A DNA stretch of 64,000 nucleotides, taken from an uncultured Syntrophomonas sp. Lineage in GTDB: Bacteria > Bacillota > Syntrophomonadia > Syntrophomonadales > Syntrophomonadaceae. The translations under genes were made by a program, and so were the position numbers. The notes beneath the pieces were generated by a model. The model did no database searches and was not told the DNA's origin. It saw only the letters and a program-made list of their open reading frames with translations. Where the stretch lies: contig CAYWFX010000003.1 of assembly GCA_964457945.1 (NCBI GenBank), positions 99,642 through 163,641 on the forward strand, given 5' to 3'. Positions 5,775 to 56,217 of the stretch are shown piece after piece (the stretch's first letter is position 1; every line of letters begins with the position of its first letter).

Positions 5775-5863
5775 GTTATTACTCCTCCTATCATCTCTCC
5801 ACTAAACTTGATTTCACTCTTTCTTCTTCCAGCGGTTTGGCCGGGATTACTGTTCATGCAATA

Positions 5864-5892
5864 TTGACAACTGCGTATTCTGCATATATACT
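5864..5892 (+). promoter_or_regulatory. Sigma-A type promoter of the MarR gene
   Basis: TTGACA (5864..5869), a 17-nt spacer, then TATACT (5887..5892). Confidence 0.6.
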
Positions 5893-5906
5893 AACCTCAC
5901 TATATT

Positions 5907-5949
5907 ACATGTAATTATAACACATGTAATTATACTATATGTAATATAA
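5907..5949 (+). promoter_or_regulatory. Three tandem 15-bp repeats (ACATGTAATTATA x2, ATATGTAATATAA), putative MarR operator
   Basis: The repeats start at 5907, 5922 and 5937. Each contains the palindromic core (T)ACATGTA(A). They sit directly downstream of the -10 box in the divergent intergenic region. Confidence 0.55.
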
Positions 5950-5990
5950 TTTCGTATAATTATTCTGTATGTTTTAGGAGGTAAACCATT

Positions 5991-29512: not shown

Positions 29513-31684
29513 CTAGCTGACCTGCCTTAGCGCAAACTCATAAAACAAACCCTTTTTCTCCATAAGCTCCGCAAAATCACCCTCTTCGGAGATTCTTCCC
29601 TTGTCCATTACAATGATTCTATCGCAGTTTTTAACGGTTGATAGACGATGAGCTATGACAATTCTGGTACAGCCCAGCTGCGCCAGGCTGTCTGCAACAT
29701 GCTTCTGGGTAATATTATCCAATGCGCTAGTCGCTTCATCAAAGAGCAGAATTTTGGGGTTTGAGACCAGTGCCCTGGCAATAAGTATTCTCTGGCGCTG
29801 TCCCCCGGATATGCCGCCGCTGCCCTCGCTAATTAAGGTGTGCATGCCCATGGGCATAGCCTTGATGTCTTCCTCTACCCCTGCCATGTTGGCTGCCCTC
29901 CAGGCATCGTCAAGGGTGCTCCAGGGCGAAGCGATGATTATATTAGAAAATATATCCCCTGAAAAGAGCTTGCCGTTTTGCAGAGCAGTTCCGATGCATT
30001 GACGCACTGAACGAACATCCAGAGTTTCCAAATCTGATCCGTCATAATAAACGGAACCCGCTTCTGGCTTCTCAAAGCCCAGCAGCAATCGCATGAGGGT
30101 TGATTTGCCGCAGCCGCTTTTCCCGACTATGGCGATGTATTCACCTGGGGTTACCTTTAAGTTTATATTATCAAGGGTGATCGGTCCGTCTTGGGTGTAT
30201 CGAAAGGTGGCATTTGATATTTCAATATTGCCGGAAAGCGCAGTAACAATCTGTTTGCTGGCGTCTACTTCAGGGACGGCCTCAAAAATAGGTTGGACCA
30301 TTTCCAGAAGCGGCTTTACGTTGGCAATGGTCATAATCACACCCGCCAGCGACATTATTGCTCCGCTGACGGCACCGTAGGCAATATTGAAAGCAATGTA
30401 GTCGGATTGGGAGATTTTATTCAGACCTGCAAAATAGTAGAGCAGCATTACGCCTCCTAGGGTAAGGGCTCCCGTTATTGCGGCGTTAAGCCGCAATAAC
30501 AGTGGAGGTGAAAACGTCAACCTACCGGTTTCCTTATATACCGCTGCCCATTTGGCAAAGGCTCGTTTTTCAGCGCCGGCCAACTTTACCTTTTGCAGAC
30601 CATTAAACAGCCCAAACACCAACCCGCTCATTTTCGCAGACAGCTTCATCTGTTTTTTAGATAGTTTTTGCTGCCATAGACCTGTTAAGATCGTAAAGAC
30701 ACACATGGTGATAATGACCAGCAGACCTGGAATAACCAGTGTCGGCGCAAAGCTTCCCATCTGAAAGATATAAACAAAGGAAAATAGAACTGAAAGCCCA
30801 GTTGTCAATACTGTATCCGAAAGCATAGAGCAAAGCTGATTAATACTCATAGCCCGGGTGCTTAGTTCCCCTGCCGTAAAATCTTTGAAGAAGGCTGCCG
30901 GCAAGGAAAATATCCTGGCCATAGCCGCGCTCTGCACAGAGAGGTTTATTTTGTCACGCAGCCTGGTCAAAACCAGGTTTCGTGTAATCCCAAACAAAGA
31001 CGAGCCTATAGCCACCCCAATTAAAAGGCCTGCTACAGGGAACACATCGCTTTTGGTTCCGCTGGGAATCACGTTGTTAAAAATCTGCTTGTTTACAAAA
31101 GGTATAAAAAGTCCCAGCAGGCTGACCAACAGGCTGGCACCAAGCACAAAAGCAATATCCGCTCTGGTAATGGAACGGAGAGCAAATAGACCCAGGTCCA
31201 GCAAATTAATTTTTTTGGCAGGCAATGCTGGGTAAAAGCAAAAAGCATCAGTATCCAGCTTTAACGCTGTTTTCCTGTTGACCTTCACCCGCTTTCCAGA
31301 CTCCCCATCGTAGAACATATAGCCGGATGGAAAGGCCGGAAGTATGGCTACCGCATCACCTTCTTTAGTACTGCCCAGCAAAACCCCGGTAGTATCCCGC
31401 CACCATTCCCCCACTAATTCCACACGCCTTCGCATCATCCCAGATGGACACAGCATATATTCAAGGCGGGCATTGATATCCTCTATTTCATCCGGCACCC
31501 GTGTTATTTTAACCCCGAGAGCAGACAACACCTCATTAATAGCGCTCTCTGCTGCCAACTCTTTTCCCTCAGCCAGCGTTTTATCCCTATCGTCGCCAAT
31601 GATGGAAAAAAGGTCCGAAAAGGCATTATCCATGGCCCTATTATCGTTTTCAAGACGTTTTTGCAGCTGCTCGCTGAATGCCAC
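29513..31684 (-). CDS. Bacteriocin/RiPP export ABC transporter, permease+ATPase, no peptidase domain (NHLM-type ABC2-like)
   Basis: 723 aa. About 150 aa of N-terminal extension, 6 TM helices, Walker A GKSGCGKST, signature ISGGQRQR, Walker B LLFDEATSALD. Confidence 0.85.
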   Translation of the reverse strand: MAFSEQLQKRLENDNRAMDNAFSDLFSIIGDDRDKTLAEGKELAAESAINEVLSALGVKITRVPDEIEDINARLEYMLCPSGMMRRRVELVGEWWRDTTGVLLGSTKEGDAVAILPAFPSGYMFYDGESGKRVKVNRKTALKLDTDAFCFYPALPAKKINLLDLGLFALRSITRADIAFVLGASLLVSLLGLFIPFVNKQIFNNVIPSGTKSDVFPVAGLLIGVAIGSSLFGITRNLVLTRLRDKINLSVQSAAMARIFSLPAAFFKDFTAGELSTRAMSINQLCSMLSDTVLTTGLSVLFSFVYIFQMGSFAPTLVIPGLLVIITMCVFTILTGLWQQKLSKKQMKLSAKMSGLVFGLFNGLQKVKLAGAEKRAFAKWAAVYKETGRLTFSPPLLLRLNAAITGALTLGGVMLLYYFAGLNKISQSDYIAFNIAYGAVSGAIMSLAGVIMTIANVKPLLEMVQPIFEAVPEVDASKQIVTALSGNIEISNATFRYTQDGPITLDNINLKVTPGEYIAIVGKSGCGKSTLMRLLLGFEKPEAGSVYYDGSDLETLDVRSVRQCIGTALQNGKLFSGDIFSNIIIASPWSTLDDAWRAANMAGVEEDIKAMPMGMHTLISEGSGGISGGQRQRILIARALVSNPKILLFDEATSALDNITQKHVADSLAQLGCTRIVIAHRLSTVKNCDRIIVMDKGRISEEGDFAELMEKKGLFYEFALRQVS

Positions 31685-31702: not shown

Positions 31703-33847
31703 CTAATTGCTAATTAGTGCGGCATATTTACCGCCCATTTGCATTAGCTCTTCATGCCGGCCCCTTTCGGAAACCCCGCCTTGGTCCAATACGATGATCT
31801 CGTCGCAGTCCCGAATAGTGGAAAGCCGGTGGGCCACAATAATCAAAGTAATCCCCCTTGCTTTCACTGCTTCCATAATCAGCTGCTCGGTTTTGGCATC
31901 CAATGCGCTGGTGGCCTCGTCCAGTATGATAATGGACGGTTCCTGGGCCAGAGCCCTGGCTATTTCGAAACGCTGCCGCTGACCACCGGAGAAGTTTTTG
32001 CCGCTTTCCTGGATTATATGGGAGTATCCTCCCTCCCGCAGCATAATGTCCTCATGAATCTGGGCATCCTTACAGGAGGATACAATGACAGCCTCATCAA
32101 TAGATTGATCCCACATGGTAATATTATTTTCAATAGTATCCTCAAAAAGCACAATGTCCTGATCTACTACTGCCAGTGAACTTGTGAAGATACTCCGGTT
32201 GATTTCATTTTTAGGTAGTCCACCAAAACGAATTTCGCCGGACCATGGCTGATATAAGCCAGAAATGAGCTTGGCCAGTGTTGATTTGCCGCTGCCTGAA
32301 CCACCTACTAAAGCAACACTCCCACCCTGTAAAAGTTTAAGGGAAAAATCCTCAATTAAGGGTGGTGAAAGCTTGTTGTATCCGAAGGTAATATTTGCCA
32401 TCTCAATTTGTCCCGTAAGTTTTTCCAAGCATGTATCATCCAATTGGTTCTGTTCATTATCATCAACATCCGGCTGGTAATTCATTACATCCTCCACCCG
32501 CTCCATCTCTGAGCGCATCTCAATAAATGATTGTCCCACTCCCACCAGCTGATTGACTGGGGACAGGAAGGAGGATAAAAAGCCCTGGAAGGCTAAAAGC
32601 ATACCAATCGTAAACTCTCCGTCTAAAATAAGGTAAACGCCTATCATCAAAACAACGGTATTTGCTATCTGCTGTAATAGCGAAGGTATTATGCTGTAAA
32701 ACTGGTTGGCTTTAGCGAAGACAACCTGGGCATTCCCCTGCTTGGCAAAATACCCAGACCAGCGTTCAAAAAACCCGTTTTCCGCACCCGACGCTTTGAT
32801 GGTTTCAATCATCTCAAAGCCAGACATAGTGATACCTGCCAGCTTGCCGCCATCGCGCTGCATAACCCGACTCATATTGACCCTTTTCTTGGATACCATT
32901 CGCAGGACCAGCATATTGATCAGTGCGGCTCCAATTCCTACAAAGGATAACGTAACACTGTAACTAATCATCACCCCCAGGTAAAGCACTAAGAGGCATA
33001 CATTCATAAATATAGGTGCTATTTGGCCGATCAGGGTGGCGGCAATTGTTTCATTGCTCGCTTGCCTGGAGGCAATATCTCCGGCAAACCGTTGGGAGAA
33101 AAAATCCACCGGCAGGCGCAGCACATGCCACATAAAGGAAGCATTCGCTTCTATGGCCAGCTTGCCCTCGATTTTAAGCCAGTAAATACCCTGAATGATG
33201 CTCACCACAAACTGCAAAATGAGAACCAACAGCATAGCTCCAATAAACGGCATCAGCCACTCCGGGTTTTTACCCGATAGGATATTATCCATAAAAACTC
33301 GGGAGAAAAACGGGGTAATTATGCCAATTCCTGCTGTGAGGATACCGGTTAGTATTACAAAGGCAAAAGCTGCAGCCGTACCGCGCAGCCGTTTCTTCGC
33401 AAAGCCCCAGACGCTTTTGGGCTTGCCCTCGGCCACAAATTCCTCAGTTTTTTCAAAACGCAAAACTATTCCGGTAAAGCTTTTATCAAACTCCTCCAGA
33501 GTTACTTCAACTATGCCCCTGGCCGGATCATTCAACACCGCCTTATCCTTTTTAAAACCATTTAACACCACAAAATGATTGAAATTCCAGTGGATAATAG
33601 CAGGCAAAGCAATATCCCGAAGAGATGAGGGTTCCATACGGTAACCTGCAGCCTTCATTCCATACGCTCTTGCAGCCATTAATACGTTTTTAGCGCTGCT
33701 GCCGTCCCGGGATACACCGCAATCTGCGCGCACCTGCTCCAGAGGCAGCCATTTTCCATGATAGGCCAGTATCATACAGAGGGACGCTGCCCCGCACTCC
33801 AGGGCTTCCATCTGCATGACCACCGGCACTTTTATAACTTTTGACAT
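31703..33847 (-). CDS. Bacteriocin/RiPP export ABC transporter with N-terminal C39 double-glycine peptidase domain (NHLM-type ABC1-like)
   Basis: 714 aa. C39 catalytic region QMEALECGAASLCMIL...HFVVL, Walker A GGSGSGKST, signature FSGGQRQR, Walker B IILDEATSALD. Confidence 0.9.
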   Translation of the reverse strand: MSKVIKVPVVMQMEALECGAASLCMILAYHGKWLPLEQVRADCGVSRDGSSAKNVLMAARAYGMKAAGYRMEPSSLRDIALPAIIHWNFNHFVVLNGFKKDKAVLNDPARGIVEVTLEEFDKSFTGIVLRFEKTEEFVAEGKPKSVWGFAKKRLRGTAAAFAFVILTGILTAGIGIITPFFSRVFMDNILSGKNPEWLMPFIGAMLLVLILQFVVSIIQGIYWLKIEGKLAIEANASFMWHVLRLPVDFFSQRFAGDIASRQASNETIAATLIGQIAPIFMNVCLLVLYLGVMISYSVTLSFVGIGAALINMLVLRMVSKKRVNMSRVMQRDGGKLAGITMSGFEMIETIKASGAENGFFERWSGYFAKQGNAQVVFAKANQFYSIIPSLLQQIANTVVLMIGVYLILDGEFTIGMLLAFQGFLSSFLSPVNQLVGVGQSFIEMRSEMERVEDVMNYQPDVDDNEQNQLDDTCLEKLTGQIEMANITFGYNKLSPPLIEDFSLKLLQGGSVALVGGSGSGKSTLAKLISGLYQPWSGEIRFGGLPKNEINRSIFTSSLAVVDQDIVLFEDTIENNITMWDQSIDEAVIVSSCKDAQIHEDIMLREGGYSHIIQESGKNFSGGQRQRFEIARALAQEPSIIILDEATSALDAKTEQLIMEAVKARGITLIIVAHRLSTIRDCDEIIVLDQGGVSERGRHEELMQMGGKYAALISN

Positions 33848-33961: not shown

Positions 33962-34402
33962 TCAGCTAAAATACCCATATTCGCAGCTCACACATCGATT
34001 CATCGAGGCATAATGAGGATGATATTCATAGCCAGGACACACATATTTATCGCCGTTTCTCGTCGCCATCGCTTTTTTTATGTATTCTGGGTCCTCAAAT
34101 TTACTGCAGTGTATGCACCCAGAATAACGCATTTGCCCTTCGCCCCCAACCACCTGATCCAGATCCTCATCGGATAATTCTCCTTCCTTGAGAGATGCCT
34201 GAAACTCCTTCAATTCATCAATGCTAAATTCAAAGCCGGCTCCTTTAGCTATAGGTAGAATTTCGCGCTCAAATAATTTGTCTTTTTCCGCCTCTTCAAG
34301 TGTTTGCAGCTCACCTTTACTAACTACATCCACATACTTGCTCTTTAGATCACTGTTCATCTCCATTGACATAAAAAACCTCATTGCATTTTCTTTAGAC
34401 AT
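33962..34402 (-). CDS. Nif11-type leader RiPP precursor A (87-aa leader ending VVGG, 59-aa Cys/Tyr/His-rich core)
   Basis: The leader MSKENAMRFF..LPIAKGAGFEFSIDELKEF..LSDEDLDQVVGG matches the Nif11-like leader pattern. The GG codons are at 34142..34147. The core, at 33965..34141, is EGQMRYSGCIHC...CVSCEYGYFS. Confidence 0.85.
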   Translation of the reverse strand: MSKENAMRFFMSMEMNSDLKSKYVDVVSKGELQTLEEAEKDKLFEREILPIAKGAGFEFSIDELKEFQASLKEGELSDEDLDQVVGGEGQMRYSGCIHCSKFEDPEYIKKAMATRNGDKYVCPGYEYHPHYASMNRCVSCEYGYFS

Positions 34403-34459: not shown

Positions 34460-35353
34460 CTATTTCAACACCAATTCATATGGTCTGTAGTCTTTAACCA
34501 CAATCAACATATTGCAGCTAGTTCCTATGGAAAGCGGTGTGCTTTCACCTTTTTTGCTGGACCATTTGATTTTATTCTGGGATTCTGGATCAACGGTAAG
34601 AGTCACCCGCACTTCGACACTGCTTTCCTCGGGCATCAGTCCCTTGGCATACTGCATACTGCCAACTGCTGACAACACATCCGCTTCTGATACCGGATAA
34701 GTGCCAATGTTGGTGATGTGTCCAAGCATATAACCATATTCTTCACGAGGTGCAAAATCAGGAGATACCTGTACTTCCATCCCCTCTTTAAGCTTTTTCG
34801 CGGTTGAGGTTGGAATATAACAGATGATCTGCTTGTCATCAGCATATTTTTCCTGCTTGACGATTCCGGCAATAGCTTCGGTAGAAGAGACCGTTTCATT
34901 GACAGACTTAACTGAAAGAACAATCCCTGAAACAGGGGATACAATCAGGGAGCGGCTTTCATATTCGCTGGTCAAGGCAGAAATCAGTTTTTGATCGGGC
35001 TGGACATTATCTTTTAATTCGTTCAGCTGTTTTATGATATTTTCCTGAGGTATAACAGCAATAATCTGGCCCGCTTCTACAAAATCGCCAACTTTAACCC
35101 GCATATCGCTGATACGCCCACCAGCTGATGGTATAACCGCACTAGCACCACTTTGTGGAAATATCACCCCTTTAGCCCTAACGCTTTCGGGGATGTTTCC
35201 GTAATACCCCCAGAAACACACGGCAATCAGGAGGGCAAGACAAGCCATAAGAATGCTCCAGATCCCGGGATTTGTTATTTTTATGTATTCATTAAGCCTC
35301 TCCGGTGAGGATATGCGTTCCAGTGAAGATTTTCTGAAGATGCTGGGTTCCAT
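34460..35353 (-). CDS. HlyD-family secretion adaptor of the RiPP exporter
   Basis: 297 aa. N-terminal SSLERISSPERL box, a single TM helix, and barrel/lipoyl-like motifs (VKVGDFVEAGQIIAVI). Confidence 0.85.
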   Translation of the reverse strand: MEPSIFRKSSLERISSPERLNEYIKITNPGIWSILMACLALLIAVCFWGYYGNIPESVRAKGVIFPQSGASAVIPSAGGRISDMRVKVGDFVEAGQIIAVIPQENIIKQLNELKDNVQPDQKLISALTSEYESRSLIVSPVSGIVLSVKSVNETVSSTEAIAGIVKQEKYADDKQIICYIPTSTAKKLKEGMEVQVSPDFAPREEYGYMLGHITNIGTYPVSEADVLSAVGSMQYAKGLMPEESSVEVRVTLTVDPESQNKIKWSSKKGESTPLSIGTSCNMLIVVKDYRPYELVLK

Positions 35354-35652: not shown

Positions 35653-37050
35653 TTAAGAGGGTTTTAGATACAACTGTTTTATTTTATCTTCATATTTATT
35701 CTTAAAGAAATAGCAGGTATATTCGTCGCAGCCAAGGTACTCATTGCAGGAAATTAGAGCTCCTGCACGGCATCCGCCGCCGCAATACAGTTTGTGCTCA
35801 CAGGCACTGCACTTTTCATTTGCATTCAATAAATCAACTAGCCTTGTATCGATGCGCCGGAGGTAGGTGGAATCGGACAAAGCCTTTAACAAGCCAATTT
35901 CCATGATATTCGGCATCTCCTCCTGGATTGGCATGCCTGTCAATGGAATGCAAGGCAGAAGCTTTCCGTCAGCGGCAATATACATCGTATTACGAGCACT
36001 ACCGCAGATGGTCTGTCTAAGCATTCTTTCGCTTCCATCAAATTTTTTACAGGGAATGTTGTAGTTGTCACTGCCTTTCTTACAATAAAAAAATCCACCC
36101 AGCATTATATTTATCGGTGCACCGGCACTTCTGTACTTCTGGATAAAGCCCAGATAGGCCTCATATATCTCCCTGACATCCAAATTATATTGACCCTGCT
36201 CTTTCAACCACTCGCCGGCATCACTTGCCGGGCTGACTTTCCAGCTTCGTACTCCAAGTTCAGCCAACAGGTAGAGTGTGGGTTCCAACACATGAATGTT
36301 TCCTTTATGCACCGCAGTCTCAATGCCAACTGGAAAGCCGTGGGCCCTCAGCAGCTTTATTGCATCAACCGCTTTTTTTTCAGCTCCGTCTACACCACGC
36401 ATCCAGTCATGACAACCCACACCGTCGAAGCTCAGGTTGAATTCCGGCTTTACCTGCCTTTTTTCCAGTTCTGACAAAAGAAGCTCGTCGACCAGTACTC
36501 CATTGGTATAAATCTGACTGATGACTATTTTTTGGGCAAGCAAAGCATCCACGATACTTAGAAAATCTTTGCGGACGAGAGGCTCGCCTCCGGTCAGGGA
36601 TACTTTACCAATACCGGCTTCTGACAACTGCTGTACAATACTCATGCACTCACTGTAGGACAGTTCACCGTACTTTGCCTGGGGTGCAGACATAAAGCAG
36701 TGGCGGCAGCGCAGATTGCACTTTCCGGTAATGGACCAGTGAGCCCGGGTAATAAACCTGCTTGGTATATACCGGTACTTCTGTTCCTCTTTAAGCTCAT
36801 CAGCATAGCTGTACTCATCTAATATACCTTTTTCATTTAAATCTCTGATGATATCCTTGTGAATTGGCAGTATAAGGGGGCTTTCAGTATCCATTTGTCC
36901 ATCGCAAAATGAAACTGCCTGAAAACTTATATCATCAAGAAAGGAGGTTTTGCCTGTTTGTGTATCCTGTATAGCATAGGGAAGCCGCTCCCACCCCCTG
37001 AGCACAAACCTATCCTTAAGCTTATAAAACACTTGGTCCATTCCTTTCAT
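35653..37050 (-). CDS. Radical SAM / SPASM-domain peptide maturase
   Basis: CNLRCRHC (CxxxCxxC) at about residue 110, SLTGGEPL, and C-terminal auxiliary-cluster cysteines (CGSARN.., CSACEHKLYCGGGCRAG). The roughly 100-aa N-terminal domain could be a leader-recognition element. Confidence 0.85.
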   Translation of the reverse strand: MKGMDQVFYKLKDRFVLRGWERLPYAIQDTQTGKTSFLDDISFQAVSFCDGQMDTESPLILPIHKDIIRDLNEKGILDEYSYADELKEEQKYRYIPSRFITRAHWSITGKCNLRCRHCFMSAPQAKYGELSYSECMSIVQQLSEAGIGKVSLTGGEPLVRKDFLSIVDALLAQKIVISQIYTNGVLVDELLLSELEKRQVKPEFNLSFDGVGCHDWMRGVDGAEKKAVDAIKLLRAHGFPVGIETAVHKGNIHVLEPTLYLLAELGVRSWKVSPASDAGEWLKEQGQYNLDVREIYEAYLGFIQKYRSAGAPINIMLGGFFYCKKGSDNYNIPCKKFDGSERMLRQTICGSARNTMYIAADGKLLPCIPLTGMPIQEEMPNIMEIGLLKALSDSTYLRRIDTRLVDLLNANEKCSACEHKLYCGGGCRAGALISCNEYLGCDEYTCYFFKNKYEDKIKQLYLKPS

Positions 37051-37068
37051 AAAAAGTAACGCAATTAA

Positions 37069-37112
37069 TAAACCTTCAAACTAAATAAAAAATCTATCAG
37101 TCTGAAGGTTTA
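37069..37112 (-). promoter_or_regulatory. Stem-loop between precursor B and the rSAM gene (possible partial terminator/processing site)
   Basis: AAACCTTCA ... TGAAGGTTT is a 9-bp perfect stem with an A/T-rich loop of about 26 nt. No clear U-run follows. Confidence 0.4.
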
Positions 37113-37168
37113 TAGATTAAGCGAAACAGTTAATGGATTGCTTGACGGGTTTCCTATTTCCCTCAAGT

Positions 37169-37564
37169 TTACCCAATGCCAGCAAGAAAACAAGAGCAAT
37201 ATTCATCGTCACCATCATCAGGAGCTGAACCACCCCCGGCTAAGCCACATACACATTTACCACCTTCGCCACTCGCATAGCCACCAATTACACATCCACA
37301 ATCGACACCGCCGGCAACTGCTTCCAGTTCATCATCGGAAAGCGGACTACTAGTTATTTCCCTGGCATATTCCTTCAATTCACTAAGAGTAAATTCATAA
37401 CCCGCCTCTTTGGCAATAGGAATTATTTTGCTATCCAGAATTCCGTCAAGTTGTTCCTCAGTGGAATTTTGATCAAAACTACCATTGATTACTTTAAATT
37501 TTGTTTTTAGGGCTTCGTTTTTTGCAAGCTCAGTGTAGAAAAGTTTTACATTTTCCTTTGACAT
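37169..37564 (-). CDS. Nif11-type leader RiPP precursor B (leader ending AVAGG, 45-aa Gly/Cys-rich core with three CxC motifs)
   Basis: MSKENVKLFYTELAKNEALKTKF..IPIAKEAGYEFTLSELKEY..LSDDELEAVAGG. The GG codons are at 37307..37312. The core, at 37172..37306, is VDCGCVIGGYASGEGGKCVCGLAGGGSAPDDGDDEYCSCFLAGIG. The start is placed at the second ATG so that both precursors begin MSKEN. Confidence 0.85.
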   Translation of the reverse strand: MSKENVKLFYTELAKNEALKTKFKVINGSFDQNSTEEQLDGILDSKIIPIAKEAGYEFTLSELKEYAREITSSPLSDDELEAVAGGVDCGCVIGGYASGEGGKCVCGLAGGGSAPDDGDDEYCSCFLAGIG

Positions 37565-37801
37565 AAGTTTCCACATCCTTTCGAAGTTTAGGTTATTTTA
37601 TTTAGTTCTTCATTAATATATAAAATTCCTTTTATTTCGAAAGATTCATTGTATTTTTGTGTCGTATTTAACATTATAATGTCGCAAAATAGTATTTAAG
37701 TAGCTAGCGATGCTCTCTATATCTGTAAAAAAATATGGCACGGAGGGCACAGAGGTTTCTAAAAAGTCGGTTATAACAACCGAAAAGCCATGAGATAAGT
37801 G

Positions 37802-40800
37802 TTAAGTGGATATAATTTGAGGTACATGTAACTTGGGCAAAAGAAGGCCAGGATGAGGCTCGCTCGTGGCTTGAATATTTTTAAAAGCCACTGATAGCAT
37901 CAGTTTCAGGCGATTGAGCTGATTGACTTCACTGGCACCGGGATCATAGTCGATGGCAGTGATGTTCGCTTGTGGATAATTCCTTTTTAATTCTTTTATC
38001 ATCCCTTTGCCGGTCACATGATTGGGAAGGCAGCCAAAAGGTTGCACACAGACGATATTGGGAACCCCGCTATGAATCAGGTCTATCATCTCTGCAGTTA
38101 ATAACCATCCCTCCCCGCAGTGGTGTCCCAGTGACATGATCTGGTTGGCGAGATTGGCCTTATGGTAGATCGAAGCAGGTGCATGAAAGCGATGACTTTG
38201 TTCCAGGAGCGCATTCATGAGCTTACGACTGTTCTCAAGGTAGTAAATAAAAAACTTCCCGAGTAATAAAGCACTCTTTTTTCCAGATAGATACTTAGCA
38301 TCGAATACATAGTCATAGGCACAATAAAGGAAGAAATCCATCAGATCTGGCAGTACCACTTCGACCCCTTCCTCTTCCAAGATTCTCACGATATTGTTGT
38401 TGGCAGCCGGATGGTATTTAACCAATATTTCTCCTACCACACCCACCCGAGGTTTTTTTACTGTTGATATGGCTAGATTATTAAACTCTTTTACAATTCC
38501 CCGCAGGTTGTCTTCAAATTCCTGTTTGTTTCCAGTGACAAGCTGCACCTTGCAACGCTCTACCCATCTCTGATAGAGCAAGTCGGCTGATCCTGGAATT
38601 TTTTCATAGGGCCTTACACGATGTAAAACGCGCATCAATAGATCGCCATAAACAACTGCACTAATCGCTTTTTTAATGAGCTTGAGAGTGATTCTAAAGC
38701 CGGGATTTTTTTCTGCGCCATAAATGTTGGCAGATAAAACTGGTATGTTTTCAAAGTCAGCCTCTTTTAGTGCTTTTCTGAGAAGGCCGATATAGTTCGT
38801 GGCTCGACACCCACCACCGGTCTGACTAATGACAACCGAGGTGTTGTTGAGGTCATATTTGCCTGATTGCAGGGCGTTAAGTAGCTGCCCAATAACAATT
38901 ATGGCTGGATAGCAGGCATCATTGTTCACATATTTGACGCCTTCATCCATAGCCTGTTTGTCCACCGAAGGCAGTAGTTCTATATGGTAGCCATCGCTCT
39001 TAAATACTTCCTCTAAAAATTCAAAATGCATCGGGGACATCTGGGGAAACAAAATGGTATGCTTCTCCTTCATATCTTTGGTAAACACGATTTTCTTCTG
39101 TGCACAAGGTACATTCTCAGTTTTCAGAGGATTTCCCTTTCTCCCACTGATGACTGCCAAAAGAGAGCGGAGCCTGATTTTGGCTGCGCCAAGATTGCTG
39201 CCTTCATCTATTTTAAGGACGGTGTAAACCTTGCCCCTGGCCTTGAGAATTTCTTGCACCTGGTCGCTGTTTATTGCGTCTAGGCCACAGCCAAAGGAAT
39301 TCAACTGGACCAGCTCTAAATTGGATTGGGTGCTCACAAAGCTGGCCGCCGCATAGAGTCGTGACTGATACATCCATTGGTCAATGACTCGGATGGGTCG
39401 CAGGACGGCCCCCAGGTGAGCCACTGCATCTTCTGTGAGAACCGCCATCCCTAGGGAATTTATCATCTCTGGTATGCCATGATTGATTTCTGGGTCGATG
39501 TGGTAAGGACGCCCGGCCAGCACAATGCCTTGTTTTCCGGTTTCTTCAAGATAAGCTAGTACTTCTTCACCTTTCTGCCGAATCTCATCTTTGAAGTCAA
39601 GATCTTCCTGCCAGGCCCTATTGACAGCCCGAGCGATTTCTTTTTTCGAAATCCCCTGACTTAGCTCTTGATGAAGTCTAATGATTAGCTGCTTCTTATT
39701 ATCGTAAGGCAGAAAGGGGGTCATCAATTTCACATTGTTCTCCCTTATCATGTCCAGATTGTTCTTAATGACCTCGGGATAGGAAGTAACCATCGGACAA
39801 TTATAATGGTGATCCGCCTTTTTCTGCTCCAAACGCTCATAAATGATGGAAGGATAGAAAATCTGCTTTACACCTTGGTTGATCAGAGAGGCAATATGCC
39901 CATGTACCAATTTGGCAGGAAAACAGGCCGTATCTGAAGGGATGGTCTCAATACCCAGGTCATAAAGCGACCGCGAAGAACGGGGGGAAATTTCCACCCT
40001 AAAGCCCAGCTCTGTAAAAAAGGTAAACCAAAAAGGATAATTTTCATACATGTTTAGAACCATTGGAATGCCAATGACGCCCCTTATGGCGTCTTTCTCA
40101 GGCAAAGGTTCATAAGCAAGGAGTCGTTTATACTTGTAAGCATAGAGATTTGGATTAGACTGCTCTTTACTTTCTTTCGCAATGGTTTTTTCACAGCGAT
40201 TGCCAGATACGAATCTCCCACCATCCTGAAACTTATTGATGATGAGTAAGCAAGCATTGCCGCAGCCCCCACAGCGATTTAAATTCGTTTGAATAGAAAA
40301 CTGGTCTATCTGTTCTTTTGATAGCAGTGAACTCGTTTGCCCTTTTTGGCTGCGATCCCGGGCAATGAGCGCTGCACCAAAGGCTCCCATCAAGGGCGCG
40401 ATATTGGGTCGAATTACTTCTCTTCCAGTGATAAGCTCCATACTTCGGAGGACCGCATCATTTTGAAAGGTCCCACCCTGAACCACAATCTTTTCGCCCA
40501 GATCATGAGGATTTCTTACCTTCATTACCTTAAACAAGGCATTCTTAATGACCGAGTAAGAAAGCCCGGCTGAGATATCGCCGACTGTAGCCCCTTCCGT
40601 TTGGGCCTGTTTTACCATGGAATTCATAAAGACGGTACAGCGGGAACCTAAATCGACTGGGTCTGATGCATTGAGTGCCAGCTCAGCAAAATCTTGCACC
40701 GATAGATTTAATGAATGGGCAAAGCCTTCGATAAAGGAACCACACCCGGATGAGCAAGCTTCATTGAGCATGATATTTTCTATGATGCCGCCCCTAATCT

Positions 40801-42082
40801 TGAGGCATTTCATGTCCTGACCGCCAATATCCAGGATTAAATCTACGCCGGGATCAAAAAACTGCGCGGCATTGTAGTGTGCCACCGTTTCCACTTCCCC
40901 TAAATCAACACGCAGAGCGGCTTTTAAGAGTCCTTCGCCATAGCCTGTAACGGCTGCATTGGCAATTCTGGCGTTAGCTGGCAGGCGAATGTACAGATCT
41001 TTTAGGATATTAATGCCAGAATTCAAGGGACCACCAGTATTATTGCCATAGTAAGAATAGAGGAGAGCTCCATTTTCATCAATCAAGACCGCCTTGGTCG
41101 TGGTTGAACCTGCATCTATACCCATAAAACAATCTCCTGCGAAGCAATCCAAATCCTTCTTACCGATCTGATGAAGCGCATGTCGCTTGCGAAACTGATC
41201 CAGCTCATCCGTATCCTTGAAGAGGGGCTGTAGTCGAGAGATCTCAGAACTGCCTTCTACATCCGCTAAGCGTTTTATAAGTCCATGTAAATGGATAAGC
41301 TTATCGTTGTTAGATGTTAACGCCGCACCCATTGCCACAAAGAACTGCGCCTGTTCCGGAAAGATGGCCTGCTTATCATTAATTTGCAGGGTATCCTTAA
41401 ACCTTTCCCGAAGTGCAGATAAGAAGTGCAGTGGGCCACCGAGAAAGGCGACATTACCTCTTATCGGTTTCCCGCCGGCTAGACCACTGATCGTTTGATT
41501 GACAACCGCTTGAAACACAGAAGCTGCAATGTCTTCTTTACGCGCACCTTCATTTAAAAGTACCTGAATATCAGTTTTGGCAAAAACACCACAGCGAGCT
41601 GCCACAGGATAGATGATGGAATACTGCCTGGCTAGTTCGTTTAAGCCATGAGCATCTGTCCCCAGCAGGGTTGCCATTTGATCGATAAAAGCCCCCGTTC
41701 CTCCTGCGCAGATCCCATTCATGCGTTGATCCAACCCGCCACGAAAAAAGGTAATCTTTGCATCTTCTCCTCCCAGCTCGATGGCTACATCGGTGTGAGG
41801 GATAAACCGATCAATCGTATTGTTACAGGCAATGACTTCCTGAATATGTTTAACACCCAACCATGAGGAGATAGCAATCCCCGCTGAACCGCTTACCATC
41901 GCTGTAAGGGGATGATTACCTATATGCCCAAATGCATTGATCAGCAGTTCAGTGGTGTGCCTTCTGGTTTCTGTGTGGTGCCGGCGATAGTTTTTGTAAA
42001 TAATTCTGCCATCATCGTCCATAATGACTAGTTTAACTGTGGTAGATCCCACATCTAGCCCCATGCGCAGTGCATCGATCAT
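37802..42082 (-). CDS. Giant fusion: two BcrAD/BadFG (HgdC-like) activase ATPase modules + HgdB/DUF2229-like C-terminal region
   Basis: 1426 aa. It has two actin-fold ATPase starts ([24 protein letters not shown]). The long C-terminal part is typical of 'CoA-substrate-specific enzyme activase' fusions. Confidence 0.8.
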
Positions 42083-44269: not shown

Positions 44270-45475
44270 TCAATCCTCCAGAGACATCGCAATATACGGG
44301 AAAGGCTCTATGCTGCGCTTCAATATCCCCTGCATATAGGCGATAAGAATACCGTAATTAGTAATGGGAATATTTTGATCCTGCGCACATTGCTGTCTGT
44401 ATTTCATTTCCCGCTCGTTTAACATACAGCCGCCACAATGGACGATCAGTTTGTATTTCGACAGATCAACAGGAAACTCTGTGCCTGAGCTGAACTCAAA
44501 ATTCAACTGTTTACCGGTGTGCTGCTTTATCCAGCGAGGGACCTTGACTGTGCCTATATCATCGCACTGGCGGTGATGGGTGCACCCCTCCGAAATCAGA
44601 ACAGCGTCACCATCATCGAGATAATCAATTGCTTTGGCGCCCTTAACAGCCAGCTCCAGGTTACCCTTGTAGCGTGCAAACAGGATCGAAAAAGAAGTCA
44701 ACAGAATATCTCTGGGCGTGTCGGCAGAAACCTTGGCAAACACTTGACTATCAGTGATGACAAGCTTCGGCTTTTTACCCAGCGAATCCAGCGTTTGCCG
44801 AAGCTCATATTCTTTGACAACTATTGCGGTTGCGTCGGCCTCAAGAATATCCCGAATGGTTTGCTGCTGTGGAAGAATAAGTCTTCCTTTCGGCGCCGCC
44901 TTGTCGATCGGTACGACCAAGACCACAAAATCTGAAGGTTCAATAAGATCCGCAACTATACGGAGCTTTGATTCTTCGCTGACAGACAATTTTGCGATAC
45001 GTTCCTTCAGTTCATGGATGTGAAAGAGTGTTTTTGCACTCACCCATATTTCATGCTCCGATACAATATGGGTATCATTGCGCAAATCTGACTTGTTATA
45101 TGCAATAATGTAGTTTATATTCTTGCGCTTGAAGCTGTCGATCAACTCATCATCAATAATTGTTTTGCCGACTGTTCCGTCGATGACCAGAACTGCTACA
45201 TCAGTCTTATTTAATACCTGCAGGCTCCTTTTTACGCGCAAACTGCCAAGTTCACCCTCATCATCAATTCCTGGGGTGTCGATAATCATTACCGGACCAA
45301 GCGGCAGCAGCTCCATGGCCTTATATACAGGGTCGGTGGTAGTTCCCTTAACATCCGAAACGATTGCAATATTTTGACCAGTAACAGCATTGACAACGCT
45401 GGATTTCCCAGCATTTCGTTTACCAAAAAAAGCAATATGTACGCGATCGGATGATGGAGTGTTGTTTAAGCTCAT
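44270..45475 (-). CDS. hydF: [FeFe]-hydrogenase maturation GTPase HydF
   Basis: G1 GKRNAGKSS, G3 DTPG, G4 NKSD, and C-terminal cluster ligands CTHH..HCGGC. Confidence 0.9.
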   Translation of the reverse strand: MSLNNTPSSDRVHIAFFGKRNAGKSSVVNAVTGQNIAIVSDVKGTTTDPVYKAMELLPLGPVMIIDTPGIDDEGELGSLRVKRSLQVLNKTDVAVLVIDGTVGKTIIDDELIDSFKRKNINYIIAYNKSDLRNDTHIVSEHEIWVSAKTLFHIHELKERIAKLSVSEESKLRIVADLIEPSDFVVLVVPIDKAAPKGRLILPQQQTIRDILEADATAIVVKEYELRQTLDSLGKKPKLVITDSQVFAKVSADTPRDILLTSFSILFARYKGNLELAVKGAKAIDYLDDGDAVLISEGCTHHRQCDDIGTVKVPRWIKQHTGKQLNFEFSSGTEFPVDLSKYKLIVHCGGCMLNEREMKYRQQCAQDQNIPITNYGILIAYMQGILKRSIEPFPYIAMSLED

Positions 45476-45487
45476 GCCACACCTCCG

Positions 45488-46906
45488 TTAAAATCTGAAA
45501 TCACGGCTGCCCTGTTGGATTTGGGTTAGGTTTTTCAGCGCGATTTGTCTCACTTTTTCGCTGGGGATATTCTTCATCTCCGCTAAGATCAATTGTTCGC
45601 CGGCTTTTTTGGTCTCCTCGGATGCATAATCCTCAGTATATTCCTTTAAAGTCATGAGAGCATTTGGATGGCAGCAGTTTTGGATTTGTCCGCTCTTGCA
45701 AAGGCTCATAAACCGGTCTCCCGTCCTGCCCTCCCGGTAACAAGCAGTGCAAAAACTGGGAATGTACCCTAGTTCCATCAACCAAAGCACAATCTCATCC
45801 AACGTCCTAGTATCACTTACATCAAATTGTTCGGATTTCTCGTCCTCGGGTTCCGGCTCGGCATATCCGCCCACACTGGTTCTCGATCCTCCGCTGACTT
45901 GTGAAATACCAAGGTGCAAAACACGTTCACGGCATTTTTGACTTTCCCTGGTCGAGACGATCATCCCGGTATACGGAACTGAAATACGGATACAAGCCAC
46001 AAGTTTCGCAAAAATATCATCATCTATTCCGTTGTCAAACGCACTCGCATCGATATCATCTGCATGACGGATTCTCGGTACGCTGATTGTATGAGGACCA
46101 ACGCCGAACACTGCTTCAAGATGCTCGCCATGCATCAAAAGGGCTGCCATTTCGTAGCGGTACAGCTCCAAACCAAACAATACCCCCAGCCCTACATCCT
46201 CAATTCCGCCGAGCATAGCTCTGTCCATGGCTTCAGTGTGATAGGCGTAATTATGCTTGGGTCCGGTTGGATGCAGTTTCTCATAGCTTTCCTTATGATA
46301 GGTTTCCTGGAACAAGATATAGGTGCCGATCTCCGCATCCTTCAATTTTTTATAATTTTCCACGGTGGTTGCGGCTATATTGACATTAACACGGCGGATG
46401 GCACCGTTCTTGTGCTTGACGCTGTAGATGGTATTGATACATTCTAAAATATATTCGATCGGATTCATTATCGGATCTTCGCCTGCCTCGATCGCAAGGC
46501 GCTTATGACCCATATCCTGCAATGCGGCAACCTCGATACGAATCTCCTCCTGAGTCAGCTTTTTACGAGTGATATGCTTGTTTTTCAGGTGGTATGGGCA
46601 GTAAACACATCCATTTACACAGTAATTCGACAGATACAAGGGAGCGAACATTACGATGCGGTTGCCATAAAAATCTTTTTTTACCTGCTCGGCCAGCGTA
46701 TAGATCTCCTGATTTTTCTCCTCAATATCGCAATCAAGCAAAACGGCGGCTTCTCTGTGCGACAGACCTTTTCTCAGTTTGGCCTTTTCGATAATGCTAT
46801 CGATCAGTGCCAGATTACTTTTGTTTTTCTGTGCATACTCAAGGGTATCCATAACCTCTTCGTGTGAAATGAATTCTTCCGCTTTTGATGATTTGGGATC
46901 GTACAT
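45488..46906 (-). CDS. hydG: [FeFe]-hydrogenase maturase HydG (radical SAM tyrosine lyase)
   Basis: 472 aa. CVNGCVYCPY radical SAM motif and a C-terminal auxiliary-cluster region (FCTACYR...LC). Confidence 0.9.
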   Translation of the reverse strand: MYDPKSSKAEEFISHEEVMDTLEYAQKNKSNLALIDSIIEKAKLRKGLSHREAAVLLDCDIEEKNQEIYTLAEQVKKDFYGNRIVMFAPLYLSNYCVNGCVYCPYHLKNKHITRKKLTQEEIRIEVAALQDMGHKRLAIEAGEDPIMNPIEYILECINTIYSVKHKNGAIRRVNVNIAATTVENYKKLKDAEIGTYILFQETYHKESYEKLHPTGPKHNYAYHTEAMDRAMLGGIEDVGLGVLFGLELYRYEMAALLMHGEHLEAVFGVGPHTISVPRIRHADDIDASAFDNGIDDDIFAKLVACIRISVPYTGMIVSTRESQKCRERVLHLGISQVSGGSRTSVGGYAEPEPEDEKSEQFDVSDTRTLDEIVLWLMELGYIPSFCTACYREGRTGDRFMSLCKSGQIQNCCHPNALMTLKEYTEDYASEETKKAGEQLILAEMKNIPSEKVRQIALKNLTQIQQGSRDFRF

Positions 46907-46973
46907 ATTTTATTCTCCTTTCTTAATCGGGTCAGGACATGAGACCTTTCCCTTCAGCTAGGTTTTTTTGCCG

Positions 46974-48029
46974 CTAAACGACAGATTTATAGTCTCCGCG
47001 GTCGACTTTTATGCTATAACCGATTTCTTCCATACGGTGCTGCATACAATACCGGCATTCAGCGGCTTCGTCTCCCGTGCAGATTTTGTTGTCATAGAGC
47101 AAATATTTGTTGCGAACATCTGTCGGAGAAAGATTTGGCATTACCACATTTGCTCCAGCGAGGATACCCAGTTCCCTCCCTTTAGGATGTATTGTTCCGA
47201 GTGCAGTTGTCGATGGCATAAGCACATTCGGCAACATCAGCCGTATTAACCCTAGCATGAACAGTGTCATCTCAAGTGTACCGGCGGGTTCTGTTGCAAA
47301 CGGCGTATCGCGATGCGGAATAAAAGGCCCGACACCAACCATCTGAGGCTGAAGGTCGTTGATGAATAACATATCCTCTGCAAGATATTCTGCAGTTTGA
47401 TACGGTGAACCGACCATAAAGCCGCATCCAACCTGAAACCCTATTTTCTTCAGGTTATATAAGCATTGTTTTCGGTTCGACAGCGACATCGACAGTGGAT
47501 GCAACTTTTTATAATGCTCATCATTAGCTGTTTCGTGACGGAGTAAATAGCGGTCGGCGCCGGCTTTATGATAAGCTTCATAGCTTGTATAGCTTTTTTC
47601 ACCGATCGACAGAGTCAGGGCACAATCAGAATGCTGGCTTTTAATGGTCTTAATCATGTCGCATATACGATCGTCGGTAAAATACGCGTCCTCTCCACCC
47701 TGAAGTACAAATGTGCGAAAACCCAGATCATATCCTGTTTTACAGCAATCTAGCACCTGTTCCTTGGTCAGTCGGTATCGTTCGGCATTCTGATTGCTTT
47801 TCCGTATCCCGCAGTAGAGGCAGTCTTTTTTGCAGAAATTTGTAAATTCGATAAGACCGCGGATATAAATATCGCTTTCGTAATGCTTGTTGCGAATGGC
47901 AACAGCCTTTTCAAACAGATATTTGTCCAGTTCTGGATTTCTGTTGGAGATTAGAGCTACAAATTCCTCATTGGTTAGATTACGTTTTTTCTCCAGTTTG
48001 TCAATCAGTGCTTTCATTATTGTCATCAC
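46974..48029 (-). CDS. hydE: [FeFe]-hydrogenase maturase HydE (radical SAM, BioB-like)
   Basis: 351 aa. CKKDCLYCGIR motif, with a BioB-like fold pattern (LQGGED, ETANDEHY). Confidence 0.9.
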   Translation of the reverse strand: MMTIMKALIDKLEKKRNLTNEEFVALISNRNPELDKYLFEKAVAIRNKHYESDIYIRGLIEFTNFCKKDCLYCGIRKSNQNAERYRLTKEQVLDCCKTGYDLGFRTFVLQGGEDAYFTDDRICDMIKTIKSQHSDCALTLSIGEKSYTSYEAYHKAGADRYLLRHETANDEHYKKLHPLSMSLSNRKQCLYNLKKIGFQVGCGFMVGSPYQTAEYLAEDMLFINDLQPQMVGVGPFIPHRDTPFATEPAGTLEMTLFMLGLIRLMLPNVLMPSTTALGTIHPKGRELGILAGANVVMPNLSPTDVRNKYLLYDNKICTGDEAAECRYCMQHRMEEIGYSIKVDRGDYKSVV

Positions 48030-48558: not shown

Positions 48559-50054
48559 CGACCTGTTGACAAACCCCAGATATAAGAAATATTTGATAAA
48601 ATAGTACTGGGGTGATACATAATGATGGGTAAACAAAGTGCGCAGTTACAGATGATCATTTTAGATATGGAACAGATGATACCGCAAACACATTTACTTA
48701 GGAAAATTGATCACATAGTTGACTTTAGTTTCATTTATGAAAGGGCAGCTGGACTTTATGCCAAAAATGGTAGACCTTCTATCGATCCAGTTGTGCTTAT
48801 CAAAATGTTGCTAATTGGCTATATGTATGGCATCAAGTCCGAACGTCGATTGGAACAGGAAGTAAATCTAAATATCGCATATCGCTGGTTTTGCGGGTTG
48901 CAACTAACCGATCGGGTTCCTGACCATAGTACATTCAGTCAAAACCGACGGAGAAGATTTAGCACAAGCGGTATCTTTCAAGAAATATTCTATGAAATCG
49001 TAAGGCAGTGCATTGATCAGGGATTGGTTGATGGGGAGTACACCGTATGTGATGGAAGCTTCCTACCTGCTGAGGTGTCAAGAAGTAGCCATACAACCAT
49101 AGAAACAACCATCCGTAAGAGCATGCAAAGTTATCTGGATGTTTTAGACGAGGAACTTGCCACTCAGCCTGGATACAAATTGGTCGAAGAGCAACCCCAG
49201 GTAATTAATCGCCTAACAAGTAAAACCGATCCAGAGTGTGGATTCATGCATAAGGGCAAAAAGAATGGGATGGGATACCTTGTTGAAACTACAGTGGATT
49301 GTAGTAACGGAATTATTACTGGAGTTGATGTGTATCCGGCCAATCAGAAAGAGAGCAGTATTGTTCTACAACATCTAGAAAAGCAGATTCAGGCGAATGG
49401 TTTGGAAATTAAACGAATAGCATTGGATGGCGGATATGACGTAGGTGCCGTACACCGTGGTCTGGAATTGATGGGAATTGAAGGATATATACCTGCAATT
49501 CCTTATTCAAACGCCCCCGAAAAACAAGGTTTTGTTTATCAATCTCACGATGATTGTTTTGTATGTCCTCGGGGACAGAAAATTAACTATGACAAACTAT
49601 ATTGTGTTCGTACTACCGGTAATTTTCTGAGGTGTTATCTAGCAGCACGTGATACCTGTCAAAACTGTCCGCAAAAATTACCATGTTTGGGCAAGGAAAA
49701 ACGCCGAAGAATCTTGGCCAGTAGTTTTTACCCTGCGTTTTACAGAGGGCATGAACGAGCCAAAGGATTACTTTATGACAAGATGATGCGCCTGCGAGCA
49801 ATTTGGTCAGAAGGTACTTTTTCCGTTTTGAAACGAGAACACAAAATGAAAACGATACAAAAACGCGGGATTGTAAATGCCAGAGAAGAGTGCCTACTGG
49901 CATCCATTGCTTTAAATCTGAAAAGAATGGTAAAAGCCTTACCCAATAAATCATACGATGGTCTTAGTTTAGTATTCTTCAAAGTGTTCATGTTCCCCAT
50001 CATCAACTTAAGAACAAATTAAGCTCCCGAAAAACCATGTTTGTCAACAGGTCG
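48559..50054 (+). mobile_element. IS1182-family (IS5-like DDE) insertion sequence, apparently intact
   Basis: Perfect 16-bp terminal inverted repeats CGACCTGTTGACAAAC (48559..48574) and GTTTGTCAACAGGTCG (50039..50054). Flanked by the 6-bp direct repeat AATAAA (48553..48558 and 50055..50060). Single transposase ORF. Confidence 0.9.
48622..50022 (+). CDS. IS1182/IS5-type DDE transposase
   Basis: 466 aa. N-terminal GRPSIDPVVLIKMLLIGYMYGIKSERRLE motif, with DDE and C-terminal Cys-rich region. Confidence 0.9.
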   Translation: MMGKQSAQLQMIILDMEQMIPQTHLLRKIDHIVDFSFIYERAAGLYAKNGRPSIDPVVLIKMLLIGYMYGIKSERRLEQEVNLNIAYRWFCGLQLTDRVPDHSTFSQNRRRRFSTSGIFQEIFYEIVRQCIDQGLVDGEYTVCDGSFLPAEVSRSSHTTIETTIRKSMQSYLDVLDEELATQPGYKLVEEQPQVINRLTSKTDPECGFMHKGKKNGMGYLVETTVDCSNGIITGVDVYPANQKESSIVLQHLEKQIQANGLEIKRIALDGGYDVGAVHRGLELMGIEGYIPAIPYSNAPEKQGFVYQSHDDCFVCPRGQKINYDKLYCVRTTGNFLRCYLAARDTCQNCPQKLPCLGKEKRRRILASSFYPAFYRGHERAKGLLYDKMMRLRAIWSEGTFSVLKREHKMKTIQKRGIVNAREECLLASIALNLKRMVKALPNKSYDGLSLVFFKVFMFPIINLRTN

Positions 50055-56058: not shown

Positions 56059-56217
56059 ACTTAAACACTCCTTTTTAGGAATAGGGAAGCTCAAACTTAG
56101 AAGTCACTCTTTTAATAAATAAAATAAATATTGTCTGCTTGAATGTTCATGCCGCCAAATTGCACGTGAGTATACACTATTGTTCGCGGATACCAAAAGC
56201 CTTTACGACCTCCTTTG

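Follow-up and report, generated by a model that had tools for sequence, protein, structure and literature searches.

A Nif11-leader precursor peptide with three tandem CxCx3GxG units beside a radical SAM/SPASM maturase in an uncultured Syntrophomonas sp.

Closest described systems

In established sactisynthase chemistry, as carried out by AlbA, SkfB and CteB, an alpha-hydrogen is abstracted and a cluster-bound Cys thiolate captures the resulting radical. Two described peptides arrange the sulfur-to-alpha-carbon thioethers (sactionines) in nested fashion. StsA from Streptomyces sparsogenes, with the motif CxCxCx4GxGxG, carries Cys2-Gly15, Cys4-Gly13 and Cys6-Gly11 sactionines, proven by mass spectrometry, variants and deuterium desulfurisation (PMC10288494), and BlaA, with the motif CxCx4GxG, is summarised in the same source as carrying nested Cys13-Gly22 and Cys15-Gly20 alpha-thioethers (He et al. 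2022, per PMC10288494). Here we describe a peptide gene, precursor B, from an uncultured Syntrophomonas sp.; it lies in a stretch of 64,000 nucleotides of contig CAYWFX010000003.1, which we call the window. Its core contains the unit C-x-C-x3-G-x-G (in one copy with Ala as the last residue) three times in tandem, and a radical SAM/SPASM maturase is encoded next to it. We consider it probable that precursor B is the precursor of a ribosomally made, post-translationally modified and exported peptide (RiPP). The reading that fits best, and that we hold to be rather likely, is that the product has three tandem two-bridge mini-hairpins with six Cys-to-Gly/Ala thioethers, and is released at the double-glycine (GG) site and exported.

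As far as BlaA/BlaB is described in that source, it also combines a CxC...GxG core unit with a radical SAM/SPASM enzyme, and its CxCx4GxG spacing is shared by a few members of the family analysed here. BlaA has one unit per peptide whereas there are three tandem units here, usually with a loop shorter by one residue (x3), and by description the leader type (Nif11 here) and the export system differ. StsA shares the layout of alternating Cys followed by alternating Gly, and StsB may resemble the maturase described here at active-site-proximal residues 1, 2 and 4 (Y/T/S). The StsA motif itself is absent from the precursor B core, which has CxCx3GxG three times instead, and in place of the single three-rung hairpin of StsA the core would form three two-rung ones. 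StsB, whose source is an actinomycete, has a separate RiPP recognition element (RRE) protein, StsC, whereas the maturase described here has a fused N-terminal domain.

Ruminococcin C from gut Clostridia (RumC1-5, RumMc1/2; PMC10470295) likewise comes from a gut anaerobe with several precursor paralogues and a radical SAM/SPASM maturase, and has more than one hairpin per peptide, but by description its acceptors are varied and far from the Cys, CxCx3GxG is not repeated and the leader is short. The SCIFF peptides and ranthipeptides (CteA/CteB, thermocellin; PapA/PapB, freyrasin) are comparable in having six Cys in about 45 residues and a radical SAM/SPASM maturase with an N-terminal recognition domain, and freyrasin also has six iterated thioether units. 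Their links go to beta or gamma carbons of Thr, Asp or Glu, however, while the conserved partners here are Gly, and in SCIFF the whole conserved peptide, with its short leader, is about 45 residues long. Identity with SCIFF was rejected: there is no TIGR03973 match at E <= 0.01, leader and architecture differ, and the resemblance of six Cys in forty-five residues is a numerical coincidence. Finally, prochlorosins and other Nif11-leader RiPPs (N11P; Haft et al. 2010, PMC2887384) share the long Nif11-type GG leader, the export trio TIGR03794/03796/03797 and the use of several hypervariable precursors per locus with one enzyme, although their chemistry is lanthionine (LanM) or azole formation rather than radical SAM, and their cores are unrelated.

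No description of CxCx3GxG repeats was found in the literature searched, outside of which lay the subscription journals, and neither a tandem-knot topology nor any other bond at such Cys/Gly pairs is reported there for sactipeptides. The one relevant paper in that literature is Precord et al. 2023, on StsA and BlaA; the family might equal one of the six new sactipeptide groups that it predicts. In Eggerthella lenta, Nif11 precursors listed together with radical SAM genes (Letzel et al. 2014) are candidates that may belong to it. The general type is already known: a RiPP that has a Nif11 leader and a radical SAM/SPASM maturase, and that is probably a sactipeptide. What appears to be new, in the sense of being undescribed in the accessible literature, is the triple tandem CxCx3GxG architecture together with a maturase clade that has no curated model.

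Precursor B, its repeat unit and its maturase

The core had been proposed in an earlier reading of the sequence, made from the letters alone (the sequence-only reading), as a 45-mer following AVAGG. The minus-strand translation of 37172-37306 is exactly this peptide, VDCGCVIGGYASGEGGKCVCGLAGGGSAPDDGDDEYCSCFLAGIG. Its TAA stop codon is at 37171-37169, and the peptide forms the C-terminal 45 residues of the open reading frame (ORF) 37169-37576 (outline VDCGC...CVC...CSC...GIG). Precursor B almost certainly starts from the second ATG, position 37564 on the minus strand, because every homologue begins there with MSKEN...; the in-frame upstream ATG at 37576 overlaps the likely ribosome-binding site. 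The leader scores above the cut-offs of NCBIfam TIGR03798, the Nif11-like leader model (47.5 bits, cut-off 32.3), and of Pfam PF07862 (39.3 bits, cut-off 23.8). Its residues E79, L80, V83, A84, G85 and G86 are invariant in a 16-sequence alignment, and the double-Gly end of the leader, with an NHLP-type export trio adjacent, is what characterizes an N11P.

As the sequence-only reading had it, the six Cys occur strictly in CxC pairs (CGC, CVC and CSC, at core positions 3/5, 18/20 and 37/39). The spacing of 15-18 residues given there was approximately right, the motif starts being 15 and 19 residues apart. The DDGDDEY acidic patch that it pointed out is present but was given too much weight, as it lies in linker 2, which is hypervariable, and is not conserved among homologues. 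When the 45-mer was shuffled, three CxC motifs arose in 1,121 of 1,000,000 shuffles (0.11%), and three CxC motifs with G at +6 and G or A at +8 in 2 out of 10^6. The CxC/Gly pattern is not a product of chance, and in a six-frame translation of the whole window no open frame other than precursor B has a C.C...G.G unit.

With precursor B as the query, a protein search gave 35 relatives, and some twenty of these consist of a Nif11 leader followed by three CxC motifs in Gly-rich sequence. The maturase has 978 relatives at E <= 1e-30, and a scan of one genome per species found a relative encoded in 426 species-level genomes, mainly of Clostridia, Synergistaceae, Negativicutes and Coriobacteriales, with some Bacteroidales, Acidobacteria and others, most of them anaerobes. 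The genome of the window itself lies outside this collection, because the best maturase match in it is 65% identical. A profile search against 1.84 billion cluster representatives yielded 3,743 matches at E <= 1e-3, of which 622 reach E <= 1e-10. The best 150 profile matches include 143 new sequences, and 79 of these have at least one strict unit and 39 at least three.

Cores were collected from 80 retrieved maturase-homologue loci and from two contigs reached through precursors. In all, 50 loci yielded 108 distinct cores, and 92 of these contain exactly three CxC motifs. The repeat unit across these cores is C0-x-C2-x3-G6-x-G8, in three copies with fixed internal spacing. Among the 92 three-CxC cores, Gly is present at +6 of units 1, 2 and 3 in 89, 89 and 83, and at +8 in 89, 91 and 89, respectively; positions +3 and +4 are hydrophobic, +3 being V, A, I, P or T. 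The linkers between the units are hypervariable in these cores (13-23 residues for linker 1 and 12-37 for linker 2), and the only invariant core columns of the 16-sequence alignment are the twelve C and G positions of the units, with the exception of +8 in unit 1, where the window peptide has Ala. Precursor B, with its three units after a GG leader, belongs to this CxCx3GxG triple-repeat family, which was defined in the present analysis. The combination of fixed spacing inside the unit and free spacing between units favors cross-links within each unit. The three iterated cross-link units that the sequence-only reading had suggested are well supported by comparison. That reading had missed the conserved pair of Gly residues, the likely acceptors.

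Covariation of Gly with Cys points to the partners within a unit. Counted from the second Cys of CxC, position +4 is Gly in 96% and position +6 in 95% of cases (n=530), whereas counted from a lone Cys in sister cores that have no CxC, Gly at +4 still reaches 72% while Gly at +6 is down to 32%. Conservation of G8 relaxes once C0 is lost, and we therefore favor the pairs C0-G8 and C2-G6. The sister class, which shares the leader type, has three single-Cys units (C-hydrophobic x3-G) and is encoded next to maturase homologues (for example at L018 7392-8272, and in proteins P0192, P0194, P0239, P0306 and others), which suggests a variant with one bridge per unit. In Synergistaceae, some precursors mix CxCx4GxG, the BlaA spacing, and CxCx3GxG within one core (L072 4627-5115, L076 1489-1908, L030 7837-8217).

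The maturase gene of the window is found 118 bp downstream of precursor B on the same strand, and its product is 45-71% identical to enzymes encoded beside other precursors of the family. A search for the CxC pattern beside radical SAM/SPASM genes of other genomes, as proposed in the sequence-only reading, had a positive outcome: ORFs with two or more strict units are present in 49 of the 80 maturase-homologue loci, and 100 of the 102 ORFs of this kind are co-oriented with the maturase homologue, at a median distance of 430 bp. Across the loci, the three frames of the enzyme strand contain 302 strict units, compared with 5 on the other strand. The number of tandem precursor paralogues ranges from one to nine per locus, and no other tailoring enzyme recurs across the maturase-homologue loci.

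Additional genes occur at two loci. At one (L085), positions 5676-5957 encode a short peptide that has a GG leader but another Cys-rich core (GGCCALC...C), immediately upstream of a maturase with 62% identity, and a canonical CxC precursor is 3.5 kb away. In the other (L001, 722-7773), genes for a YcaO protein, three more radical SAM enzymes, one of which has a weak B12-binding match, and an Rce1-like protease are located directly upstream of two CxC precursors and their maturase, and this could be a larger hybrid RiPP locus.

The neighboring enzyme, read earlier as a SPASM maturase, is confirmed as a radical SAM protein with CxxxCxxC (C105/C109/C112) and the complete seven-Cys SPASM pattern (C343, C361, C408, C411, C417, C421, C440). 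Both the CxxxCxxC and the seven C-terminal Cys are common to sixty-six homologues, and the Pfam SPASM match falls just under its threshold (19.1 vs 21.5 bits). Such a maturase adjoining a Cys-containing precursor is the gene arrangement of sactipeptides. The N-terminal part of about 95 residues resembles an RRE. An AlphaFold2 model of the maturase (predicted local distance difference test, pLDDT, 93.7; predicted template modelling score, pTM, 0.92) has its best structural matches in PDB in SkfB, SuiB and CteB, then anSME, at no more than 20% identity, and the alignments with SuiB and CteB cover those N-terminal residues, which correspond to the peptide-recognition domain of these enzymes. By sequence, the sactisynthase SkfB ranks first among PDB entries (79.9 bits), followed by SuiB (55), PqqE (53) and CteB (46).

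Curated families claim neither the core nor the maturase, in keeping with the earlier remark that the core was not recognised as a described family. Scans of precursor B and four other family precursors against NCBIfam and Pfam gave the Nif11 leader as the sole match, with no model for the core; no NCBIfam equivalog cut-off is reached by the maturase or by four other members of its clade, and RefSeq names for the enzyme are generic only. The maturase scores 61.6 bits against the PapB model (cut-off 340) and 96 bits against TIGR04103, the Nif11-class peptide radical SAM maturase 3 (cut-off 725). We also mapped the six positions proximal to the catalytic site (Precord et al. 2023) through a hidden Markov model (HMM) alignment to CteB. 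In the clade, positions 1-6 are F/Y, T147, Y175, S201, I362 and P363, compared with Y, T, I, S, K, L in StsB and F, F, T, S, H, Q in CteB; positions 1-4 read Y-T-F-S in SkfB, F-L-T-S in SuiB and S-S-I-S in PqqE. Positions 1-4 of the clade may lean slightly toward the sactisynthases StsB and SkfB over CteB, SuiB and PqqE, and positions 5 and 6 carry no information.

Proposed modification and its alternatives

The gene, its leader family, the conservation of the unit, the linkage of precursor and maturase genes, and the class and fold of the enzyme are established here. We infer the cross-linking of the Cys itself, the alpha-carbons of Gly as acceptors and the nested topology. The 86-residue Nif11-type leader would dock on the N-terminal recognition domain of the maturase, which would treat the three C-x-C-x3-G-x-G units as modules independent of one another. 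The acceptors would be the residues at +6 and +8, all of them Gly except Ala11 of unit 1; a 5'-deoxyadenosyl radical would take their alpha-hydrogen, and a Cys thiolate, probably on an auxiliary Fe-S cluster, would capture the alpha-carbon radical to give a sactionine. The predicted nested bonds are C3-A11/C5-G9, C18-G26/C20-G24 and C37-G45/C39-G43. The product would be three tandem bicyclic mini-hairpins with six thioethers, 12.09 Da lighter than the unmodified core (4203.69 to 4191.60 Da), which the C39-peptidase ABC transporter would cut after AVAGG and, working with the HlyD adaptor and the second ABC subunit, export as the 45-mer.

We propose sulfur-to-alpha-carbon bonds because Gly, the conserved partner of the Cys, offers an alpha-carbon only, and two nested thioethers per unit because StsA and BlaA follow the same Cys/Gly logic. 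Cleavage at GG by the C39 domain, and export, are proposed because of the family assignments of the export genes. It is tentatively possible, although we would not call it the likelier outcome, that these peptides represent an undescribed scaffold of three tandem bicyclic Cys-to-Gly thioether knots joined by hypervariable linkers, made iteratively by an uncharacterized maturase clade and widespread in anaerobes. Its hosts would then span gut, rumen and sediment anaerobes of Clostridia, Synergistaceae, Negativicutes, Coriobacteriia and other groups.

Several observations count against three nested sactionine hairpins. Every bond assignment is one that we infer, the inner ring would run from Cys to i+4, one residue tighter than in BlaA or StsA, and unit 1 of precursor B has Ala rather than Gly at +8. 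The set of lone-Cys cores used for covariation carries some noise. The maturase is not a member of the StsB family (NCBIfam NF045574; 106.8 bits, cut-off 625), against which other clade members score 71-90 bits; its best family model is ScmE, at 125 bits with a cut-off of 400, and many SPASM families are about equally distant. Positions 5 and 6 (I-P) match neither StsB (K-L) nor CteB (H-Q). Finally, 31 of the 80 enzyme loci have no strict-motif precursor; of these, some have short flanks and some have variant cores (single-Cys C-x3-G-x-G; CxCx4GxG), and the clade is therefore not strictly tied to one substrate. The N-terminal CxC of RumC also donates to downstream acceptors, Ala among them.

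Thioethers of another connectivity or to another acceptor, which we regard as unlikely, could be crossed bridges (C0-G6 and C2-G8, both i+6), a large hairpin between units, or non-alpha links of the ranthipeptide type to side chains of the hydrophobic residues at +3/+4 or of Asp/Glu in the linkers. The maturase is equally far from sactisynthases and ranthisynthases at the level of family models, CteB is among its top structural matches, and, as the Cys pair and the Gly pair are both spaced by two, spacing alone cannot exclude crossing. The fall in G8 conservation when C0 is absent favors nested over crossed bridges, and the precedents of StsA and BlaA are nested. Against non-alpha links, the sole conserved non-Cys positions are Gly, which have no side-chain carbon, and against bonds between units or to linkers, the linkers are free in both length and composition.

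A different radical SAM reaction, such as epimerisation, formation of a Cys-derived heterocycle, a C-C cross-link or cyclopropanation of Val/Ile, with the Cys in another role, seems to us improbable. In its favor, the chemistry of SPASM enzymes is diverse, family models assign the maturase no reaction, and TigE, anSME and EpeE are also among the structural neighbors of its model. The residues that such reactions need are not conserved, however, +3 being any of the five residues listed above, and the conserved two Cys and two Gly, fixed in their spacing, are laid out exactly as donors and acceptors are in sactipeptides with proven Cys-to-Gly bonds.

It is very improbable that the peptide binds metal, as a metallophore-like or metallothionein-like molecule whose free CxC thiols chelate with help from the acidic patch, which the sequence-only reading had named as its other option. 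CxC motifs are common metal ligands, and the core is acidic (charge about -6), but precursor B matches no metal-binding family in Pfam or NCBIfam, the patch is not conserved, a radical SAM/SPASM maturase is an obligate partner, and the near-invariant Gly at +6/+8 with their covariation with Cys would be left unexplained.

The window also encodes precursor A, which has a Nif11 leader as well but belongs to another core family. It was considered as the substrate of the maturase and rejected, based on a closely related locus (L084) in which synteny with the window extends over the HlyD, exporter and binding-protein genes. This locus keeps A-type precursors and the exporter, and has neither a CxC precursor nor this SPASM enzyme; precursor B and the SPASM enzyme are therefore a separable two-gene module. 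Precursor A is probably not a substrate of the maturase and shares only the exporter, and precursor B would be the substrate. That precursor B is instead an unmodified or disulfide-bonded double-glycine bacteriocin sharing the exporter, with the maturase acting on A or elsewhere, is very unlikely: double-Gly leaders do also serve unmodified bacteriocins and precursor A does lie between the HlyD and ABC genes, but CxC precursors and not A-type ones accompany the maturase across the 80 loci, A-type precursors in L084 occur with other radical SAM enzymes, and the producers are anaerobes, which makes disulfides unlikely.

Three tandem nested hairpins, if true, would add a modular repeat-based architecture to thioether peptides, in which one enzyme recognizes a 9-residue cassette three times per substrate while the linkers tolerate almost any sequence. 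A cassette with such tolerant linkers would be useful for enzyme-made libraries of constrained peptides, and the donor/acceptor map derived from covariation makes the cross-link hypothesis testable. Few bacteriocin-like products have been characterized from anaerobic and gut microbiota, in which the large unnamed RiPP family marked out here is concentrated. The presence of up to nine paralogous precursors per locus suggests diversifying roles for the products, which may be antagonistic or signalling.

Neighboring genes and other features of the window

On the minus strand the gene order is precursor B, the 118-bp spacer, the radical SAM/SPASM enzyme, HlyD, precursor A, the C39-ABC exporter and the second ABC gene (Table 1). 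All three NHLP export proteins exceed the NCBIfam equivalog cut-offs.

Table 1. Features of the precursor B locus, in window positions
Feature	Position	Strand	Details
Precursor B gene	37169..37564	minus	131 aa; MSKEN... start; TAA stop 37171-37169
Nif11-type leader	37307..37564	minus	86 aa; ends ...DDELEAVAGG, double-Gly cleavage site
Core peptide	37172..37306	minus	45 aa; unmodified monoisotopic mass 4203.69 Da; isoelectric point ~4
Unit 1	37274..37300	minus	C3-G-C5-V-I-G-G9-Y-A11; Gly at +6, Ala replaces usual Gly at +8
Unit 2	37229..37255	minus	C18-V-C20-G-L-A-G24-G-G26; canonical C-x-C-x3-G-x-G
Unit 3	37172..37198	minus	C37-S-C39-F-L-A-G43-I-G45; canonical; G45 is the C-terminal residue
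Long RNA hairpin, then U5	37051..37127 (core stem 37113-37068)	minus	between precursor B and maturase
Radical SAM/SPASM peptide maturase	35653..37050	minus	likely start GTG 37032, giving 459 aa
NHLP-type HlyD secretion adaptor	34460..35353	minus	TIGR03794 203.5 bits, cut-off 156.2
Precursor A, second Nif11-leader peptide, different core family	33962..34402	minus	between HlyD and ABC genes
Peptidase-C39 ABC exporter (NHLM_micro_ABC1)	31703..33847	minus	TIGR03796 973 bits, cut-off 853.3; PF03412 123 bits
Second ABC permease/ATPase subunit (NHLM_micro_ABC2)	29513..31684	minus	TIGR03797 759.8 bits, cut-off 709.4
Promoter-like site TTTATA-18-TAAAAT	37595..37624	minus	upstream of precursor B; consensus match only
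Terminator-like hairpin	37767..37783	minus	ends upstream CoA-activase gene; sets 5' limit of peptide locus

The RNA hairpin between precursor B and the maturase has a folding energy of -35 kcal/mol (z = -6.1), and none of 200 shuffles was as stable; a simple terminator scan had missed it. It looks like a terminator, and is probably an attenuator or a transcript-stabilising element, which would fit operons that need far more precursor than enzyme transcript. Promoter-like sites are no commoner in the window than in shuffles, and the promoter scan was not used as evidence.

Precursor A has 8 relatives and a conserved five-Cys core, GC[IV]HC...YVCPxYxYHPH...CxSC[EQ]YGYF. In L084 (8001-8507, 8848-9763) an A-type precursor is found beside a 706-aa B12-binding radical SAM enzyme and a 485-aa CxxxCxxC protein, both of which are absent from the window.

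Upstream of the peptide locus, at 37802-42082 on the minus strand, lies the gene of a 1,426-aa fusion of two BcrAD/BadFG ATPase modules and DUF2229, of the type of activases of coenzyme A (CoA)-substrate enzymes. It appears to be a separate transcription unit, and was rejected as a member of the locus based on its different function and the terminator-like hairpin behind it. Further along, a 1,415-aa ORF at 51847-56094 and ORFs at 56218-57288 and 57197-58519 (356 and 440 aa), all on the minus strand, have no Pfam match at E <= 1e-5. HydF, the [FeFe]-hydrogenase maturase, recognized by its HydF domains, is encoded beside two radical SAM genes in HydG/HydE-like positions (44270-48029 on the minus strand, 48622-51355 on the plus strand), and two transposase genes, one of the DUF772/DDE type and one of the Mutator family type, directly adjoin this group.

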